Below, piece after piece: positions 618-40,041 of a DNA stretch of 40,041 nucleotides. The notes beneath the pieces were generated by a model. It worked only from the letters and a program-made list of their open reading frames with translations, did not search any database and was not told the origin of the DNA. The stretch is from a virus: positions 1-40,041 of the IMG/VR virus record IMGVR_UViG_3300046390_000025; one strand, written 5' to 3'. Every line of letters starts with the position of its first letter. Position 1 is the stretch's first letter. The position numbers and the translations under genes were made by a program.

Positions 618-1796
618 CTAAGCCACCATCGGCACAATCTTGCGTGCTGAGTCCGGCCGGATCGAGAACCAAGCGCGGCCGAGTTCGGGGTCGTCAATGC
701 CTACATCAACGTAGTACCGTTTCGCAGTGACCTCGGTATCGCCCAATGCCCGAGCTACATCACCCAGAGAACGGAAAGAAGCTCCATAGGACGCATAGGA
801 ATTGCGCAGGGCATTCTCTGGCACCTTGAGGCCAAGCTCATCAAGCAAAACGGCCTTCTCGCGTTGTAGGGTCGATTGTGAAATAGCAATGACCGGTCCT
901 TCGCTCTTAGAGACCAATTGCAACCATTCGCGAGCTGCTGGCTCAAGCGGAATCGTTCGCCGACGATCGTCCGCAAGCGTCTCCTTGGCAACCTCGTGCC
1001 GAATCCGGATCTTGCCGTTTTTGAAATCAACGTCGCGCCATTCGATCCGCGGATCTTGTTCTATTGGCTGTGATGAAATTAGCTCGCATCGACGTAACCC
1101 GGCCAAGCCACCGAGCACAAAATAGGGAAGAAGTCGCGGAAATCTTTCGGCACAAGCGAATAAAATTCGCCGGAAATCCTCGACCGCGAGAAAACCTTTT
1201 TTCGATTTCCATTTATCCAGGCGTTCGGCATTGGCCAAAGGATGAGAACTGACATACCCCTTTTTCATTGCCCACTTGAAAAAGGCGTGCAGATTCGACC
1301 ATTGCGATTTACGGGTGCCACTGGTCTTAAATCGCTTAAAATAAACATCGGTGATCATTTCTTCGGTCACCTCGACGATTGGCAACTTCGGACTTACGTC
1401 GATACAAAAACGGTTCAGGGTTGAACGATATTTTCTTCGGGTCACTGGGTGCTTTCCAGTATCCTCTTGATGCGCCTGAAAGGCCAGACAAGCCTCGTGA
1501 ATGGTTGCACTTGGCTTTTTGAGTGTTGCCATCATTCGCCGATGCTGACTCAAAGATTCAAGCGCCTTATTAAAGTCGCCAGCGTAATCCGTTTTGACCA
1601 ATTGTAAAAAGGCCAAAGCATCATCGCTCAAATCTTCTGCTGGATCGATCCCACGGTTACGGGTGATTTCTGTTGCTTTGGCTTCCGCCGTGCTCTTTGA
1701 ATCAAAAAACCGGACCTGCCTTTTAGCCGTCCCGCTCCATTTTGGCGGAATGATAATGCGATATTTTCCCGATTGTTTGTCTTTGGTTACCTTCAT
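618..1796 (-). CDS. int: Tyrosine recombinase / phage integrase (392 aa)
   Basis: C-terminal catalytic-domain pattern: GLAGLRRCEL (Arg I), NALRNSYASY (box II Arg), LGDTEVTAKRYY (Tyr nucleophile). The N-terminus KYRIIIPPKWSGTAKRQVRFFDSKSTAEA resembles the three-stranded-sheet arm-binding domain. Adjacent to the tRNA fragment. Confidence 0.9.
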   Translation of the reverse strand: MKVTKDKQSGKYRIIIPPKWSGTAKRQVRFFDSKSTAEAKATEITRNRGIDPAEDLSDDALAFLQLVKTDYAGDFNKALESLSQHRRMMATLKKPSATIHEACLAFQAHQEDTGKHPVTRRKYRSTLNRFCIDVSPKLPIVEVTEEMITDVYFKRFKTSGTRKSQWSNLHAFFKWAMKKGYVSSHPLANAERLDKWKSKKGFLAVEDFRRILFACAERFPRLLPYFVLGGLAGLRRCELISSQPIEQDPRIEWRDVDFKNGKIRIRHEVAKETLADDRRRTIPLEPAAREWLQLVSKSEGPVIAISQSTLQREKAVLLDELGLKVPENALRNSYASYGASFRSLGDVARALGDTEVTAKRYYVDVGIDDPELGRAWFSIRPDSARKIVPMVA

Positions 1797-1812
1797 TCGA
1801 TTACCTTCTAAA

Positions 1813-1848
1813 AGTTCAGTACGGCGTTATCTAGTTCATTTACTGAAC
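1813..1848. repeat. Candidate integrase arm-type sites, left of the attP core
   Basis: AGTTCAG at 1813-1819 is the exact reverse complement of CTGAACT. Inverted pair AGTTCAtttacTGAAC at 1833-1848, flanked by direct ATCTAG copies at 1829 and 1851. Confidence 0.4.
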
Positions 1849-1960
1849 AAATCTAGATATTTTTTGACGTTTTTGTCACTATTTGTCTCGCATGGGAAGG
1901 GTTGAAATTCCAAGAGTAGCGCCTTCGGAGATCCTTTACTAGAGCCATTCCTGAGGGAAA

Positions 1961-2006
1961 CTACCGCGCATGGATTCGAACCATGAATAACGCCTCCAAA
2001 GAGCGT
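1961..2006 (-). other. 3-prime half of a tRNA-Gln(UUG)-like gene. Putative attP core, not a complete tRNA.
   Basis: The minus strand reads ACGCT-CTTTGGA-GGCGT (anticodon arm, anticodon TTG), TATT (variable loop), CATGG-TTCGAAT-CCATG (canonical T arm), CGCGGTA (3-prime acceptor strand ending in A72), G (discriminator). No matching 5-prime acceptor or D arm lies upstream. Confidence 0.6.
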
Positions 2007-2054
2007 ACTTCATTTTGCAATCTCCCGAGGAAAAATTAAAAAACCAAAATTTTC

Positions 2055-2072
2055 CTGAACTGATACTGAACT
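2055..2072. repeat. Candidate integrase arm-type sites, right of the attP core
   Basis: Direct repeat CTGAACTgataCTGAACT with 11-bp spacing, about 30 bp upstream of the HNH gene ATG. Confidence 0.4.
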
Positions 2073-2102
2073 TTTCCGTAAAGCTATTTGAGGGAAAAGT
2101 CA

Positions 2103-2798
2103 ATGAAAGTCATATTTATTCAAGGCCACAGGAATCTTCATTGGAGGATTATTATTCCTCCACGGTTGACTGGAACAGGGAAACGCGAATGCAGATTCTT
2201 TGAAACGGAGGAACAAGCAAATGAAGCAATCCAAATGTTGCCCAGAATCAACGCGCTTAAAGAATTGGAAATCGAAGCAAATATCGAATCAATCATGGCA
2301 GCAATTGAGAAACTCAACGGCTTTGAAAGATACAATCTTCTGAGAAGACTTAACCGTTCTGCAGCACGTGAACGACGCCAAACATGTTTAATGAAAGGCA
2401 AAAAAATCACTGTAAATGATCGACCGAAAAGCTCGATCCGTTATCAAACGAATCTCCAATATAAGCTGCGCACTTCCTTAAGTAATCGGCTCAATGAACT
2501 TGTAAAAGCCGGTCAAGCCAATGGCGGTCGCATTATTGATCTTCTTGGCTGCACGATTCCTGAGTTCATGACGTACTTAGAAGGTCAATTCGTGGAAGGA
2601 ATGGCTTGGAATAATTATGGGCCAGTCTGGCATATCGACCATATCCGACCTTGCTCCAGTTTTGACCTGAGAGATCCTGAGCAGCAAAAACGCTGCTTCC
2701 ATTGGACGAATCTCAAAGCCCTTTTGGCAATTGAAAATCTCCGCAAGGGGAAGAATTTAATTTCCTTCGTCGCCGGTCGAAGCAATATTAAACAGTAA
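2103..2798 (+). CDS. HNH endonuclease with an integrase-like (AP2/arm-binding-like) N-terminal domain (231 aa from ATG 2103; the track ORF starts at TTG 2088)
   Basis: HNH core WHIDHIRPCSSF...HWTNLKALLAIENLRKGKN. The N-terminus HWRIIIPPRLTGTGKRECRFFETEEQANEA parallels the integrase N-terminus. GAGGGA lies 8 nt upstream of ATG 2103. Confidence 0.85.
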   Translation: MKVIFIQGHRNLHWRIIIPPRLTGTGKRECRFFETEEQANEAIQMLPRINALKELEIEANIESIMAAIEKLNGFERYNLLRRLNRSAARERRQTCLMKGKKITVNDRPKSSIRYQTNLQYKLRTSLSNRLNELVKAGQANGGRIIDLLGCTIPEFMTYLEGQFVEGMAWNNYGPVWHIDHIRPCSSFDLRDPEQQKRCFHWTNLKALLAIENLRKGKNLISFVAGRSNIKQ

Positions 2799-3274: not shown

Positions 3275-3507
3275 ATAGTGAAAACTAAACGATTAATAAC
3301 ACCGGATAAAGAATACTGGAACCTTTTCCGAAAGCACCAAAGGAAAATAGGTTTATGGGAAGTCCCGCACGTCAAAACTAAAGTTCAGCAAAGTCGGGTC
3401 GTAACAGTTAGCTAGTCTTTAAACAATCTCGCGCGTCACGAGATAGGAAAGCAACGACCGCACGGCGCAGGCAGCGCGCAGTAAAAAGTGAGTCTGCCAG
3501 GATCTTA

Positions 3508-3540
3508 CCGGTTCACCTCAAAGAACCGGCTTTTTTCTTT
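3508..3540 (+). terminator. Rho-independent terminator
   Basis: 7-bp stem ccggttc/gaaccgg, 8-nt loop acctcaaa, then cttttttcttt. It ends 3 nt before ATG 3543. Confidence 0.7.
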
Positions 3541-3542
3541 CA

Positions 3543-5602: not shown

Positions 5603-8600
5603 GACGCACCCCCAGGGCAGGGAAGATCTTTCATGATTTCCATTAGCCGGGTACGGATCTGATCGTCAGCCGGCATAACTTTTCCCTGAATCTCTTTTCC
5701 AATCTCTTTGCCCAAATTGTTCAGCGCCACGCGTTCGGCATCCGCGGTTTTGCTTACCACATCAGCCATTTGCTTTAATTTGGGTTCAAGATTAGCCGGC
5801 GCTTCTTTATTGTTGCCCTTTAGATAGGCTTCCTTCATTCCGTTAAAAGTGGTGTAATCAAGTGGAATCTCCCGTTGCAGGGCTCTACCCGAATCGCTCC
5901 AGACCTGTTTAAATTTCTTGATCGGCCCATTGTGAAAAGCGGTCACTGCATCCGCTGCGGCCCTAGCTTGAGCTTGTAGTTGCGGATTAGTCGGATCAGC
6001 GGTTGCCGCCCTGGAAGCGGCTCTGGCCTGCTCACTCAAGAGCGCTTCCTTCGACCTGATTGCAGCGCCTTGCTGGTCAAGATCGCCGCCTTTACCTTTT
6101 ACGAAATTGTCAATCAGCCCCTCCCTTTGCGCCGGGCTCATCTGCAGCCCCTGCTGCACCATATCCTCGGTAGATTGCCCCTGGCTGGGATCAATCTGAC
6201 CAAGCTCACCTGCAGCCATACGTTCTTGAACATATCGGTTGGCAATAGCGCTAGTTATGGGTTCAGCCTCGCTCATGGTCCCCGGTAAAACCGGCTCAGT
6301 CGCCTGGCTGAGTTCTCTTTGGGCTTGAGCCCAATCATCTAGCGCGGTGCCAGGCTCGCCATTTTTGGTACGTTCGTCGTAGATCTCATAAGCGCGCCGC
6401 GCTACATCTTCCTGAGTGACCGCTCGAGCCGGCGGACGAGTTACATCGGTAATCTCATTCCCGAAATGAACCTTACTGCCGCCTTGCCACATTTCGACTG
6501 GCATCAACCCGACCTCTGGCGCAGTGCGTCCGTTTACTACAGTTCTGCGCTCAAATTTGCCTGCATCTGGTCCTTCCACGTATTTGAGGCCAAAACGACC
6601 ATCACCCAAAGGTGCAATAATAGTCTTTGGGCCCCCACGCGCTTGGAACTCCGCAAGCTTTTGGGCATCCTCTGGAGTAACGAAAAATGTCTGTTCGGAA
6701 CGTGGCTGAAGACCTTGATCAGCTACGCCGTGCTCGGGGTGATAAGCTTTATTGCGGGTCGTTGTTCCGTCATCATGAAGAACGTAGGTCGAACCTTTGG
6801 CAGTAGTGAAAGTCGTTCCTCCTTCAACTGGTGCTGACGGAGGTTGTTCTTCCGGTATCCGCGCCTCGACCTCGCGCCACATGATGGGCAGCTTTAACGC
6901 TCCGGGCGCTCTGACCTGCGGGTTACGAACCGCGTTAAACGCATCCTGGGCGCGTTGCAGCTCTAATGCCGTGTAAACCGTTGGTCCATCCTGGAAAGCC
7001 CTGTAAGACTGCATTAAGCGCGTTGTGGAGCCAAATGAATAGGGCAGGCCTTGGGGCAAGAAACGTTCCAACTCGTACCTGAACCGATCAGTCTCAAGAT
7101 TTCTCGCCGTCAAAGCGGCCATCCGATCAGCCACTTGCTTAGCTTCATAATCATTAAGATCCGGGAACACATTATGGGCCACAACCTTCAGAACGTCATC
7201 GGCTTGCTCTGGTGCAATGTTTCGAGGCGGTTCAGGTCCCAGGACATCGATCGCCGATAATGGACGCTTAGTTAACTGGGGCTCTTCAGTGGTAACCAAC
7301 GGCGGCTGCACCGCCTCATCTTTCGGAGCCGGTTTAATTCCCTCAGGCCGGACGCCAGGTTCTCGAGCGCCATGCACGACCCCGCCAACTACTCCTGGCA
7401 CAGCTTGCACCGCTCCCGCCCCAGCAGCTTGCAATACTCCTTCGGCGGTGGGTCTACCTTCGGCAACGTTAATCCCAATCTGCTGCGCGGCTCCTGCCGT
7501 GCCGCCTATGCCAAGATGCGCTAAAGCGCTTAACCCGATTCGTTGAACCGGGTTTTCAATTGCACCGGTCAAACCCCCAAGTTTGCCGCCGGCCAATCGA
7601 TTCAAAACTTCCGCCGGCACGATCTGCGCCATGGTGCTGCCTGCCGCCCTGGCCTTCAGTTCATCCTCGCTCATGCCAGGATTGTCTTGGCGAAGCCGCG
7701 CAACTGTGCCCTGATAAATTTCAGAAAGCATCAATGACTGACCAATTGGCCCGGTAACACCCTCGATAACGTTTTTGGGGAGCTGCGCAAACTGGTCAGC
7801 CCACCAGCCCGCGGCCGTACCCTGCAACCGCGGATCAGGCCGCAACGCCTTCGTGTTGACTTCAACCTGGCGCGCGATCTCTGCCTGCTGGCGTTTTTGA
7901 TACTCCGGGTTCGCCATGCGGCTGGCGCTGTCGGCTATGTCAACCGGGTTCAACGCTGCTAGCGCCGGATTGTTCGGATCCAGAGTCCCGATCAAATGAT
8001 TGATCGTCGCTGCGCGTGTCGGCTCATCTTGAATTGACGTAATCGAATTAATGAACGCTTTGCGTCCTTCTATGGTGGCTTCGGGATGAAGGGCTTTAGC
8101 CAGCATATCGAGCCGGTTCTGATCGATAGTGACCGCCGACTGGTTAAATGCCGTAACCGCCTGATTGAGGTACGGAAGAGCTTTATCCTTTATCTCGCCA
8201 AAGAAAGTGCCGGCGTCTGGCGATGACATAATCTTGGCCAAAGCTTCCTTTGGATCTTTGATCCCGTAATAATCCTGGGCGTACTTGGTAGCTTCATCTT
8301 TGACCGCTTGCTGGTAATTTCGGCGCATTGCATCCGGAACGCCTTCAATCGGTTGATCTAAGCGATTGATTAATGCCGGCAACGATTGGTTTTGTTCGGG
8401 TAACTGCGCAATCGTAGCCCGGAAATTCTGCTGGTTAAATGCGTCGGCTTGCTGGCGTGCTGCGCCTTCTGCGCTGGGTACAACCGGCTTGAAAGTGTAC
8501 CCCAGCTTCGGCACAATCTTCTGCACCCCGGGCTGCAACGTACTGGAATCAAATCCTTGGCGAATTGCCGCTTGTTCATCGGCCCAGAGTTGCGGATTCT

Positions 8601-38846: not shown

Positions 38847-39104
38847 ATGACTAAAAAGCTGCCCAAACACCACGCCGGCCAAGTCCGGCGCACGGTAAGC
38901 CTGTCGATCTCGGTCCCGGTCGAGCTGGAAGCTCCGCTGAACCAGGCCGCCGCCCACCGCGGCATGAACCGGAGCCAGTTCGTCTGCTGGCTGGCCACCA
39001 ACTACCTCTACCTGCAACGCGGCCAGTTGCCCCCGGAACCGCTCCCGGCAGAATTGCCGCCACTGCCCAAGGCACCACCACGGGTTCGGCGCAAAGTATC
39101 ATAA
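38847..39104 (+). CDS. Ribbon-helix-helix (CopG/Arc/MetJ-type) regulator (85 aa from ATG 38847)
   Basis: RRTVSLSISVPVELEAPLNQAAAHRGMNRSQFVCWLA is a typical RHH strand-helix-helix. On the opposite strand to the flanking early genes. Confidence 0.7.
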   Translation: MTKKLPKHHAGQVRRTVSLSISVPVELEAPLNQAAAHRGMNRSQFVCWLATNYLYLQRGQLPPEPLPAELPPLPKAPPRVRRKVS

Positions 39105-39326
39105 ACGCTTACCTCCTTTAAGCCCCTGCTTAGCCCACCAGTCTTCCAGGATATCGCGCTTAAATCGCCACTGGCCCCAGGGTTTGCGTTGGAATCCACC
39201 TGGGATCGCGCCCGTTCTGGCATCGCGACGAACCGTTTGTTTATCAAATCCTAGTGCCTCAGCAACCTCGGCAACCGACAGAGTCTTCCGTCGATCAAGC
39301 GGACTGAGTAAAGTATCGGATGTCAT
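39099..39326 (-). CDS. Excisionase-family / MerR-like HTH DNA-binding protein (75 aa)
   Basis: LSVAEVAEALGFDKQTVRRDARTGAIPGGFQ...WRFKRDILEDWW matches the excisionase-type helix-turn-helix pattern. Confidence 0.7.
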   Translation of the reverse strand: MTSDTLLSPLDRRKTLSVAEVAEALGFDKQTVRRDARTGAIPGGFQRKPWGQWRFKRDILEDWWAKQGLKGGKRL

Positions 39327-39441
39327 ATTTCAGCTCTTTTGAGCGCTTTGATCTTTGCACAGAGAATTTGCTGTTTTTCCCTGCGAACGGTTTTGCCCTG
39401 GAGCTGCGAACAGAATCGCCTTCGAGAAAGAAATCTTGACG

Positions 39442-39914: not shown

Positions 39915-40041
39915 ATTCGGCGTAAGTTTGGAGTTGCAATACAGCGCTAAGCTTGAAGCGGCCGGATCTGATACATCTGGCCGTTTCCTTTTATGGGAAA
40001 GCTCCCGATGGCGGAGAACGCATGCTTTTCGGGTGAACTGA
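39915..40041. repeat. Right copy of the exact 127-bp terminal direct repeat
   Basis: Identical to bases 1-127. Confidence 0.95.

Follow-up and report, generated by a model that had tools for sequence, protein, structure and literature searches.

Why should an integrase and a nuclease, encoded on the two sides of a phage attachment site (attP), begin with the same small domain, and what would such a domain do for the nuclease? The question is raised by the IMG/VR virus record IMGVR_UViG_3300046390_000025, whose 40,041 nucleotides (hereafter the window, meaning the whole stretch of DNA that was analyzed) encode a tyrosine integrase (Int) and, divergently across attP, a 231-residue protein. An original prediction, made from the letters of the DNA, had described this protein as an HNH endonuclease that carries the same N-terminal DNA-binding module as Int. 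When the two genes are analyzed together with their relatives, the shared module proves to be an old duplicate and nucleases that bear it are found against attP. The explanation that we tentatively prefer is that the gene encodes a mobile HNH endonuclease, directed by its Int-type N-terminal module to the attachment (att) region in the service of homing and/or competition.

The N-terminal module shared by Int and the nuclease

The two genes and their parts are arranged as follows.

618-1796, minus strand: Int, tyrosine integrase, 392 aa (phrog_1 integrase, 8e-25; Phage_int_SAM_5, 24.1 bits, above the cut-off)
1662-1796, minus strand: N-module of Int (residues 1-45), probable arm-type-site-binding domain (module profile, 7e-20)
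2103-2798, plus strand: modular endonuclease, 231 aa, composed of an Int-type N-module, a helical linker and an HNH domain (AlphaFold2 model, mean predicted local distance difference test score (pLDDT) 82.8)
2103-2240, plus strand: N-module of the nuclease (residues 1-46; module profile, 3e-19)
2241-2459, plus strand: helical linker (residues 47-119), present in the N-module subfamily only (alignment, subfamily profile and AlphaFold2 model)
2460-2759, plus strand: His-Me finger (HNH) domain (residues 120-219; motif, model and BFVD matches)

The presence of one module in both proteins is borne out by sequence comparison. BLASTP aligns Int residues 12-60 with nuclease residues 14-59 at 18/49 identities (E=8e-8, for a single comparison), and a module profile recovers both proteins at about 1e-19 and scores no other protein of the window. 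About 14 identities had been counted originally across a 23-residue core running from RIIIPP to an Ala; the 14 identities were recovered, over a stretch that measures 25 residues. The DNA of this stretch is 55% identical between the two genes, with different codons at 9 of the 14 conserved residues, and the module duplicate is therefore old, in agreement with the view that it is no recent copy. Residues P19, F33, E37 and A39 are invariant in the nuclease modules and the same core positions are conserved in Int. The module is kept in all seven full-length nuclease homologues (54-70% overall identity) and in every aligned Int homologue (36/36, from a family for which 173 homologues were found).

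An AlphaFold2 model of the module, built on an 80-sequence alignment, contains strands at residues 3-7, 12-18 and 29-33 and a helix at residues 36-45 (mean pLDDT 76, rising to 81-89 in the core blocks), and the model of the full-length nuclease repeats these three strands and the helix. Strand-strand-strand-helix is the topology of the arm-binding domains of the lambda and Tn916 integrases and of AP2 domains. When the 80 module sequences were scanned against Pfam, the top families were Arm-DNA-bind_4, which we take to be the family formerly named Integrase_AP2 (10/80, best E 3.9e-4), and AP2 (2/80, 1.4e-3), all of them below threshold. Foldseek comparison of the 62-residue module model with the PDB gave a best E of 2.2, which is uninformative rather than negative because the domain is too small; the module profile matched nothing relevant among PDB sequences, and hhalign of this profile against the lambda and Tn916 Int N-domains, with approximate sequences of these domains, returned a probability below 1%. 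The arm-binding or AP2-like fold that had been proposed originally is accordingly plausible, in view of the predicted topology and the sub-threshold families, and it is not proven, because the Foldseek, profile hidden Markov model (HMM) and hhalign comparisons gave nothing significant. Its position, predicted topology and weak profile signal, taken with the arm repeats described below, lead us to regard the module as probably an arm-binding domain. A separate observation concerns P0319, a 238-aa protein from a search of 1.84 billion proteins, in which a fragment that matches the ATP-dependent DNA ligase domain (Pfam, 1.3e-8) follows the N-module; it may be a further module fusion, or an assembly or frameshift artefact.

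The open reading frame (ORF) of the nuclease has alternative starts at 2088 and 2103, of which ATG 2103 is the likely one because all homologues begin with MK. Its C-terminal 100 residues contain the pattern W-H-I-D-H-I-x-P ... N-L ... E-N-L-R-K-G, in which H177-I-D179-H180 is encoded at 2631-2642 and N203 and N212 are the remaining motif residues. These five residues (H177, D179, H180, N203 and N212) are invariant across the seven full-length homologues and, together with C150, C184 and C198, in a set of 15 homologues. In the AlphaFold2 model, residues 176-180 and 204-208 form strands and residues 209-215 a helix, together a beta-beta-alpha unit, and block pLDDT is 94-96 over residues 151-210. 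A Foldseek search of BFVD returned 31 viral proteins at E<=1e-3 (best 1.6e-11), mimivirus L246 among them, as well as entries annotated as HNH, HNHc or intron-encoded endonuclease; the matches that include proteins named HNH or HNHc span 1e-11 to 1e-6. A Pfam scan of the nuclease gave no HNH or HNH_3 hit (Pfam HNH reached E=0.3 in 1/15 homologues), and phrog_1035 endonuclease VII matched weakly (1.1e-3). Against the PDB, Foldseek of the full nuclease model yielded only non-significant matches (the nuclease-like domain of autotaxin; 4h9d, E=6.3), and when the protein, its family profile and the profile of the module were each run against PDB sequences by HMM search, only spurious matches to designed repeats and coiled coils came back. 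PADLOC and NCBIfam searches matched no family. The HNH label is hence upheld by motif, predicted fold and BFVD matches, and Pfam does not add to it. To judge from motif and model, the His-Me finger (HNH) nuclease domain that makes up the C-terminal half is intact, and metal-dependent DNA cleavage is predicted for it.

The attachment site and the nucleases beside it

Between the two genes lies attP, with the following elements.

1797-2102, no strand assigned: attP region (P arm, core and P' arm), 306 nt, 39.5% GC against 54.5% for the genome
1961-2005, minus strand: attP core, a 3'-terminal 45-nt piece of tRNA-Gln(UUG) that spans anticodon stem through discriminator base (tRNA alignment)
1810-1821, minus strand: putative arm-type repeat TACTGAACTTTT (as read on the minus strand), Int-proximal arm (inverted partner of 2064-2075; CTGAACT match)
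1841-1849, plus strand: putative arm-type repeat TACTGAACA, Int-proximal arm (repeat search of attP)
2055-2061, plus strand: putative arm-type repeat CTGAACT, nuclease-proximal arm (motif match)
2064-2075, plus strand: putative arm-type repeat TACTGAACTTTT, nuclease-proximal arm (motif match; inverted partner of 1810-1821)

The reverse strand of 1961-2005 matches complete tRNA-Gln(UUG) genes of Verrucomicrobiae metagenome-assembled genomes (MAGs) with one mismatch, and the same 3' fragment is also present in the attPs of five related phage contigs. ARAGORN detected no whole tRNA gene in the window, and Rfam gave nothing there. On MAG contigs, integrase genes homologous to int are preceded, at a distance of 200-400 nt, by an intact tRNA gene for Lys, Gln, Glu or Asn, and nearly every related locus has a tRNA T-arm motif upstream of int, in most cases about 150-750 nt away.

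CTGAACT occurs at 1813 (minus), 2055 (plus) and 2066 (plus), and CTGAAC also at 1843 (plus), which places two copies of CTGAAC(T) on each attP arm. Four copies of the hexamer in 306 nt compare with 0.21 expected (Poisson P=7e-5, for a motif that was picked post hoc). The repeats at 1810-1821 and 2064-2075 form an exact 12-nt inverted pair; the CTGAACT copy at 2066 follows the copy at 2055 by 11 nt, and the 2064-2075 repeat ends 28 nt before ATG 2103, its CTGAACT, the last in attP, ending 31 nt before that codon. Both the statement that the two genes flank attP with repeats between them and the placing of the right-hand repeats about 30 bp upstream of the nuclease start are confirmed by these coordinates. 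Each of the other phages that carry the nuclease has in both arms a repeat of its own, copies of which lie 10-75 nt upstream of the start of the nuclease gene: TCAGTGGAC and TGCACTTT, two copies of each, in L001; GTACGAC, inverted and direct, in L005; and four copies of CTGCTACA in L006, while the repeats of L114, L116 and L117 were identified by eye from the sequence. We regard these repeats flanking the att cores as putative arm-type sites. The window additionally contains a palindrome, ACTTTTCC..GGGAAAAGT, at 2070-2100 immediately upstream of the nuclease ATG, and two copies of TGAGGGAAA, one at 1952-1960 beside the attP core and one at 2089-2097 at the start of the nuclease gene; these are possible operators or sites for a second protein, separate from the CTGAACT repeats.

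The full module-HNH architecture was found in the window and in only six other protein clusters (P0002-P0007; 54-70% identity). All seven module-bearing nucleases abut an arm of a tRNA-derived attP core, which is of the tRNA-Gln type in the window, L001 and L117 and of the tRNA-Lys type in L005, L006, L114 and L116. The layout takes two forms: in the window, L001 and L114, int and the nuclease gene are divergent across the core, and L117 has the same attP-HNH orientation on a 1.3-kb contig that ends before any int is reached; in L005, L006 and L116 the order attP-nuclease-int is kept on one strand, and the stop codon of the nuclease overlaps or directly abuts the int start. The Int-nuclease pairing around attP, which the original prediction had held up for a survey, thus recurs in the related phages L001, L005, L006, L114 and L116. 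By comparison, at the 59 module-less homologue loci in IMG/VR that have the C-terminal domain, giant-virus bins among them, neither the module nor this Int family occurs within 4 kb. From 7/7 against 0/59 it follows that the module and closeness to attP go together.

The catalytic domain has 481 homologues at E<=1e-3, and among the aligned ones only P0002-P0007 share the module, the others having different and unrelated N-termini. A further 76 GenBank phage records match only nuclease residues ~101-231, at varied genome positions; module-less homologues lie, for example, between tail genes in Pseudomonas phage JBD44 and beside the terminase gene in Verrucomicrobia phage P8625. By these matches, the catalytic half is a member of a promiscuous viral nuclease family spread over phages and giant viruses. 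In a survey of some 65 related int loci that each offer 450 nt or more of upstream sequence, the nuclease is present only in the window, L001/L002 and L005 (L006, L114, L116 and L117 were found through the nuclease itself, outside this survey). About 50 related int loci with enough upstream sequence have no nuclease, including some whose Ints are 70-72% identical to that of the window. A conserved two-gene cassette was considered and rejected, as the genes downstream of the nuclease differ between phages.

The genome around this locus has an exact 127-nt direct repeat at its two ends (1-127 and 39915-40041), and the window is therefore taken to be the circular assembly of a complete phage genome of about 39.9 kb. 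Prophage integrase genes homologous to int are present in soil MAGs of Verrucomicrobiota and Chthoniobacterales, and the phage group is one of temperate, uncultured phages of soil Verrucomicrobia. Int itself, a tyrosine integrase of the heterobivalent type, comprises the N-module (residues 1-45), a SAM-like core-binding domain (about 110-190) and a catalytic domain (about 200-385), with R235, K271, R331 and Y362 invariant in the alignment. Its catalytic site is an unusual variant among tyrosine recombinases: throughout the family the canonical HxxR box is replaced by N328-x-x-R331, and G352-D353 takes the place of the usual G-H/W preceding the catalytic Tyr. The family is evidently active, because prophages sit at tRNA genes. 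Two further features of the window bear on the explanations weighed below.

39102-39329, minus strand: HTH_17 (excisionase/MerR-type) gene, 3' of int across the circular junction (Pfam HTH_17, 1.9e-10, 41.3 bits against a cut-off of 27)
3508-3540, plus strand: terminator-like hairpin and T-run (consensus scan only), which would close a rightward unit starting with the nuclease gene

The HTH_17 gene has homologues at most related loci and is a candidate for the true directionality factor or excisionase, or else for an early regulator. The hairpin stands at the end of an apparently non-coding stretch (3416-3542), which finishes in a strong hairpin (3508-3529) and a T-run and in which Rfam found nothing. 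A long minus-strand gene block runs from 4007 to about 27400 and is taken as the structural block from the size and order of its genes; the nuclease gene lies beside attP at its far end. A terminase gene was not identified in the window.

Mobility, target and competing explanations

When the nucleases of the window and of the tRNA-Lys phages are compared, the part that follows the module is 62-75% identical, whereas the corresponding Ints are about 39% identical, or 23-26% where no more than a partial Int could be compared, and the Int identities as a whole span 23-41%. The closest nuclease to that of the window is found in L114, a tRNA-Lys phage (75%), ahead of those of the tRNA-Gln phages L001 (68%) and L117 (64%). 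Composition was compared in four phages, with the nuclease genes at window 2103-2798, L001 9430-10050, L005 1312-1974 and L116 602-1258. These genes have 42-45% GC against 48-55% for their phages (52-55% in the window, L001 and L005) and 50-53% for int, a deficit of about 10 points (5-10) relative to the own phage; GC at third codon positions is 36-48% in the nuclease genes and 52-61% in the neighboring int genes. The module-coding part of the window's gene has 40.6% GC. Incongruence with Int, low GC and sporadic distribution point to mobility of the nuclease, and they are suggestive of horizontal movement of the gene between phages, module included, on a comparison of identities rather than a formal tree test.

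The original prediction went on to suppose that Int and the nuclease probably recognize one DNA motif, an idea examined by permutation over about 110 Int modules and 10 cognate Int-nuclease pairs. A nuclease module and the Int module of its own phage share 27-51% identity, with a mean of 41.6% against 39.3% for shuffled, non-cognate pairs (p=0.09), and every nuclease module has several foreign Int modules that are much closer to it (55-66%) than its own Int. Matching of modules to Ints had been taken up as evidence of shared specificity when a matrix of four pairs looked block-structured; the signal was gone with ten pairs and the argument was abandoned. The Int modules of the window and L001, which are 57% identical, accompany different repeats (CTGAACT in the one, TCAGTGGAC and TGCACTTT in the other), and a 39% identical paralogue need not share its DNA specificity with Int. 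That the nuclease reads the same motif is thus unsupported, because foreign Ints resemble its module as closely as its own Int does. Within the nuclease it is the N-module that evolves fastest, at 43-57% identity where the remainder shows 62-75%, and fast evolution of this kind is compatible with retargeting, being what retargeting would produce.

The slot between attP and int varies in its contents, which comprise an HTH_17 Xis-like gene (in L008, where it is a classical one of 75 aa at 5777-6004, and in L011, L015 and L022), module proteins, unrelated ORFs of 190-250 aa, or nothing. The slot has the look of a hotspot for cargo more than of a place reserved for xis, because elsewhere it holds unrelated ORFs or nothing; such unrelated occupants are seen at L010 5414-5986 and L019 5255-6004. 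Small module-only proteins of about 105-135 aa, which lack nuclease and recombinase domains alike, occupy the excisionase position between attP and int at the following loci.

L021, 375-902: module-only protein
L025, 5682-6004: module-only protein
L026, 304-627: module-only protein
L033, 544-966: module-only protein

The 1.84-billion-protein search returned 74 module-only representatives, many of which look like truncated or frameshifted integrases, and only two families that recur in independent samples were accepted, namely P0252, which resembles the L026 protein, and P0278, which resembles the L033 protein. The module of the L026 protein is 67% identical to that of the window's nuclease (E=1e-14). 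Near int, a further HTH_17 gene is retained by many related phages, among them that of the window. The idea that the nuclease is itself the phage excisionase was downgraded, since this conserved HTH_17 gene is present and the slot holds unrelated genes elsewhere; recombination directionality factors (RDFs) are recognized as small, DNA-bending helix-turn-helix (HTH) or winged-helix proteins, which bind the att arms and stimulate excision, and the nuclease is a 231-aa protein with a nuclease domain and a fold that is not HTH.

We therefore return to the mobile endonuclease as the explanation tentatively preferred. The first ~45 residues of the nuclease represent an old paralogue of the probable arm-binding domain of the phage group's own Int family, and its gene acts like a horizontally moving cassette, found only against attP arms, on either side of the core. 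The N-module would dock the protein on repeat DNA in or near the att arms of the phage group, the helical linker would allow the HNH domain to nick or cut near the docking repeats, and the gene would thereby spread into the attP of related phages (homing) and/or harm competitors with recognizable arms. A bolder form of this explanation has a mobile HNH gene taking over a copy of the Int arm-binding domain to recognize attP arms, and cutting beside them to home or to disable rivals or prophage ends, with the module-only proteins in the xis position as a second new class, of Int-derived recombination regulators; in this full form we consider it doubtful. Several points weigh against a mobile endonuclease directed to the arms. 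The module may read sites other than the Int arm sites, because it has no special match to its own Int. Its fold assignment comes with no significant structural match, and no target site emerged from the analysis. A nuclease aimed at arm repeats would need a mechanism of self-protection, because the carrier phage has such repeats itself. Conservation of the nuclease above that of Int could partly reflect constraint and not transfer, and no clear-cut presence/absence polymorphism was seen among near-identical genomes, the nearest nuclease-free relative having 72% Int identity. The layout in which the nuclease gene overlaps or abuts the int start in the manner of an operon partner, together with the module-only proteins in the slot, fits a role as recombination accessory better than pure selfishness.

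That last point is the starting place of an alternative in which module proteins bind arm or nearby att sites and compete or cooperate with Int, acting as anti-Int proteins or in the way of a directionality factor, or autoregulate the arm promoter, while the HNH domain is an add-on of one lineage. The attP-int slot, with its start/stop overlaps, is held by Xis-like, module-only or module-HNH genes, the module-only proteins are conserved across samples, the L026 module is close to that of the nuclease, and every nuclease gene has arm repeats in its 5' region. Such a role is possible, but we doubt it: a conserved HTH_17 gene, distinct from the nuclease gene, lies near int and may supply the directionality factor, other phages have unrelated ORFs or nothing in the slot, the catalytic residues are strictly conserved, and the gene looks foreign from its low GC and incongruent divergence. 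It counts further against an accessory role that we know of no directionality factor that needs a nuclease. The nuclease might instead be expressed in lysogens and protect them by cutting incoming related phages at att-arm-like repeats. The divergent layout puts the gene at the far prophage end, reading inward from attR, and beside attP it forms a separate unit with its own terminator-like hairpin and a low GC; a position at the prophage end, an own transcription unit and low GC are typical of moron and defence cargo genes. The DNA-binding module is, moreover, specific to the phage group. We nevertheless consider exclusion of this kind unlikely, as PADLOC matched no family, a resident prophage with the same arms would be targeted itself, the tandem layout co-orients the gene with int and does not isolate it, and expression in lysogens is only presumed.

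Free-standing nuclease genes insert at many places and the duplication is old, and the gene could be an evolutionary relic that landed in a duplicated int 5' end, with a non-functional module and a closeness to attP that reflects no more than the position of int. What makes this improbable is that the module is kept in all seven homologues, with P19, F33, E37 and A39 invariant as core positions shared with Int, and that the gene stays against an attP arm even with int on the opposite side; the association of 7/7 against 0/59 speaks in the same sense. In HK97-like phages a terminase-associated HNH protein is needed for cos cleavage, and one module-less homologue adjoins the terminase gene in P8625. 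For the nuclease of the window, however, a function as such a packaging helper is very improbable: its gene is beside attP at the far end of the presumed structural block, a terminase gene adjoins the nuclease in no annotated relative, and about 50 relatives with the same Int family have no nuclease.

Relation to known systems and implications

The original prediction knew of no described system of this kind, and this was overstated. HNH homing endonucleases with AP2-type DNA-binding domains have been described (Magnani 2004 and Wessler 2005, as cited in PMC5714182). These enzymes (His-Me finger group 2, HNH_3/I-HmuI-like) resemble the nuclease described here in joining an HNH domain to a small three-strand-plus-helix module, in being modular and in being patchily distributed in phages. 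The present nuclease belongs to another catalytic subfamily, without a Pfam HNH or HNH_3 hit; its module is N-terminal and a paralogue of the Int family, not a generic AP2 domain, it lies beside attP, and homing is in its case only proposed, from sequence. Free-standing phage homing endonucleases such as I-TevI and the T4 Seg and Mob proteins (see also PMC10448857), whose binding and cleavage domains are separable, likewise combine a catalytic domain, a long linker and a DNA-binding domain, and are also similar in their sporadic presence, atypical composition and location at genome-module boundaries, whereas the binding domain here is recombinase-derived, not HTH or NUMOD, and a target, cleavage and homing are for the nuclease no more than putative.

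The arm-binding N-domains of heterobivalent tyrosine integrases (lambda Int residues 1-64; Tn916 Int) share with the module its N-terminal place, its predicted topology and the arm repeats flanking a tRNA-derived core. The module differs from them in its sub-threshold score to Arm-DNA-bind_4, with no significant match to a solved structure, and in occurring also outside integrases, fused to a nuclease or standing alone. Excisionases and other RDFs (lambda Xis, HTH_17/winged-helix) are comparable in position, in that three phages have the nuclease between attP and int with start/stop overlap or abutment; the nuclease is of another fold and three times larger, is an intact nuclease, and is accompanied by a separate HTH_17 gene. 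Our literature search brought up no account of a nuclease beside attP that carries an integrase-paralogous domain, nor of obligatory closeness to attP. What is new, by the loci compared here, is that the module is paralogous to the phage's own Int family and that the gene is beside attP in every case found.

If the module does direct the nuclease to att-arm DNA, this would be a new link between site-specific recombination and the nucleases of homing and competition, in which a selfish or competitive gene gets its address by copying the DNA-reading head of the neighboring recombinase. It would also mean that Int arm-binding domains move about as modules in their own right, joined to a nuclease or standing alone in the excisionase slot, the latter possibly as a new class of directionality or regulatory factors in phages of soil Verrucomicrobia. 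The paired Int and nuclease modules, together with the phage-specific arm repeats, form a natural set for studying the DNA specificity of this small domain.

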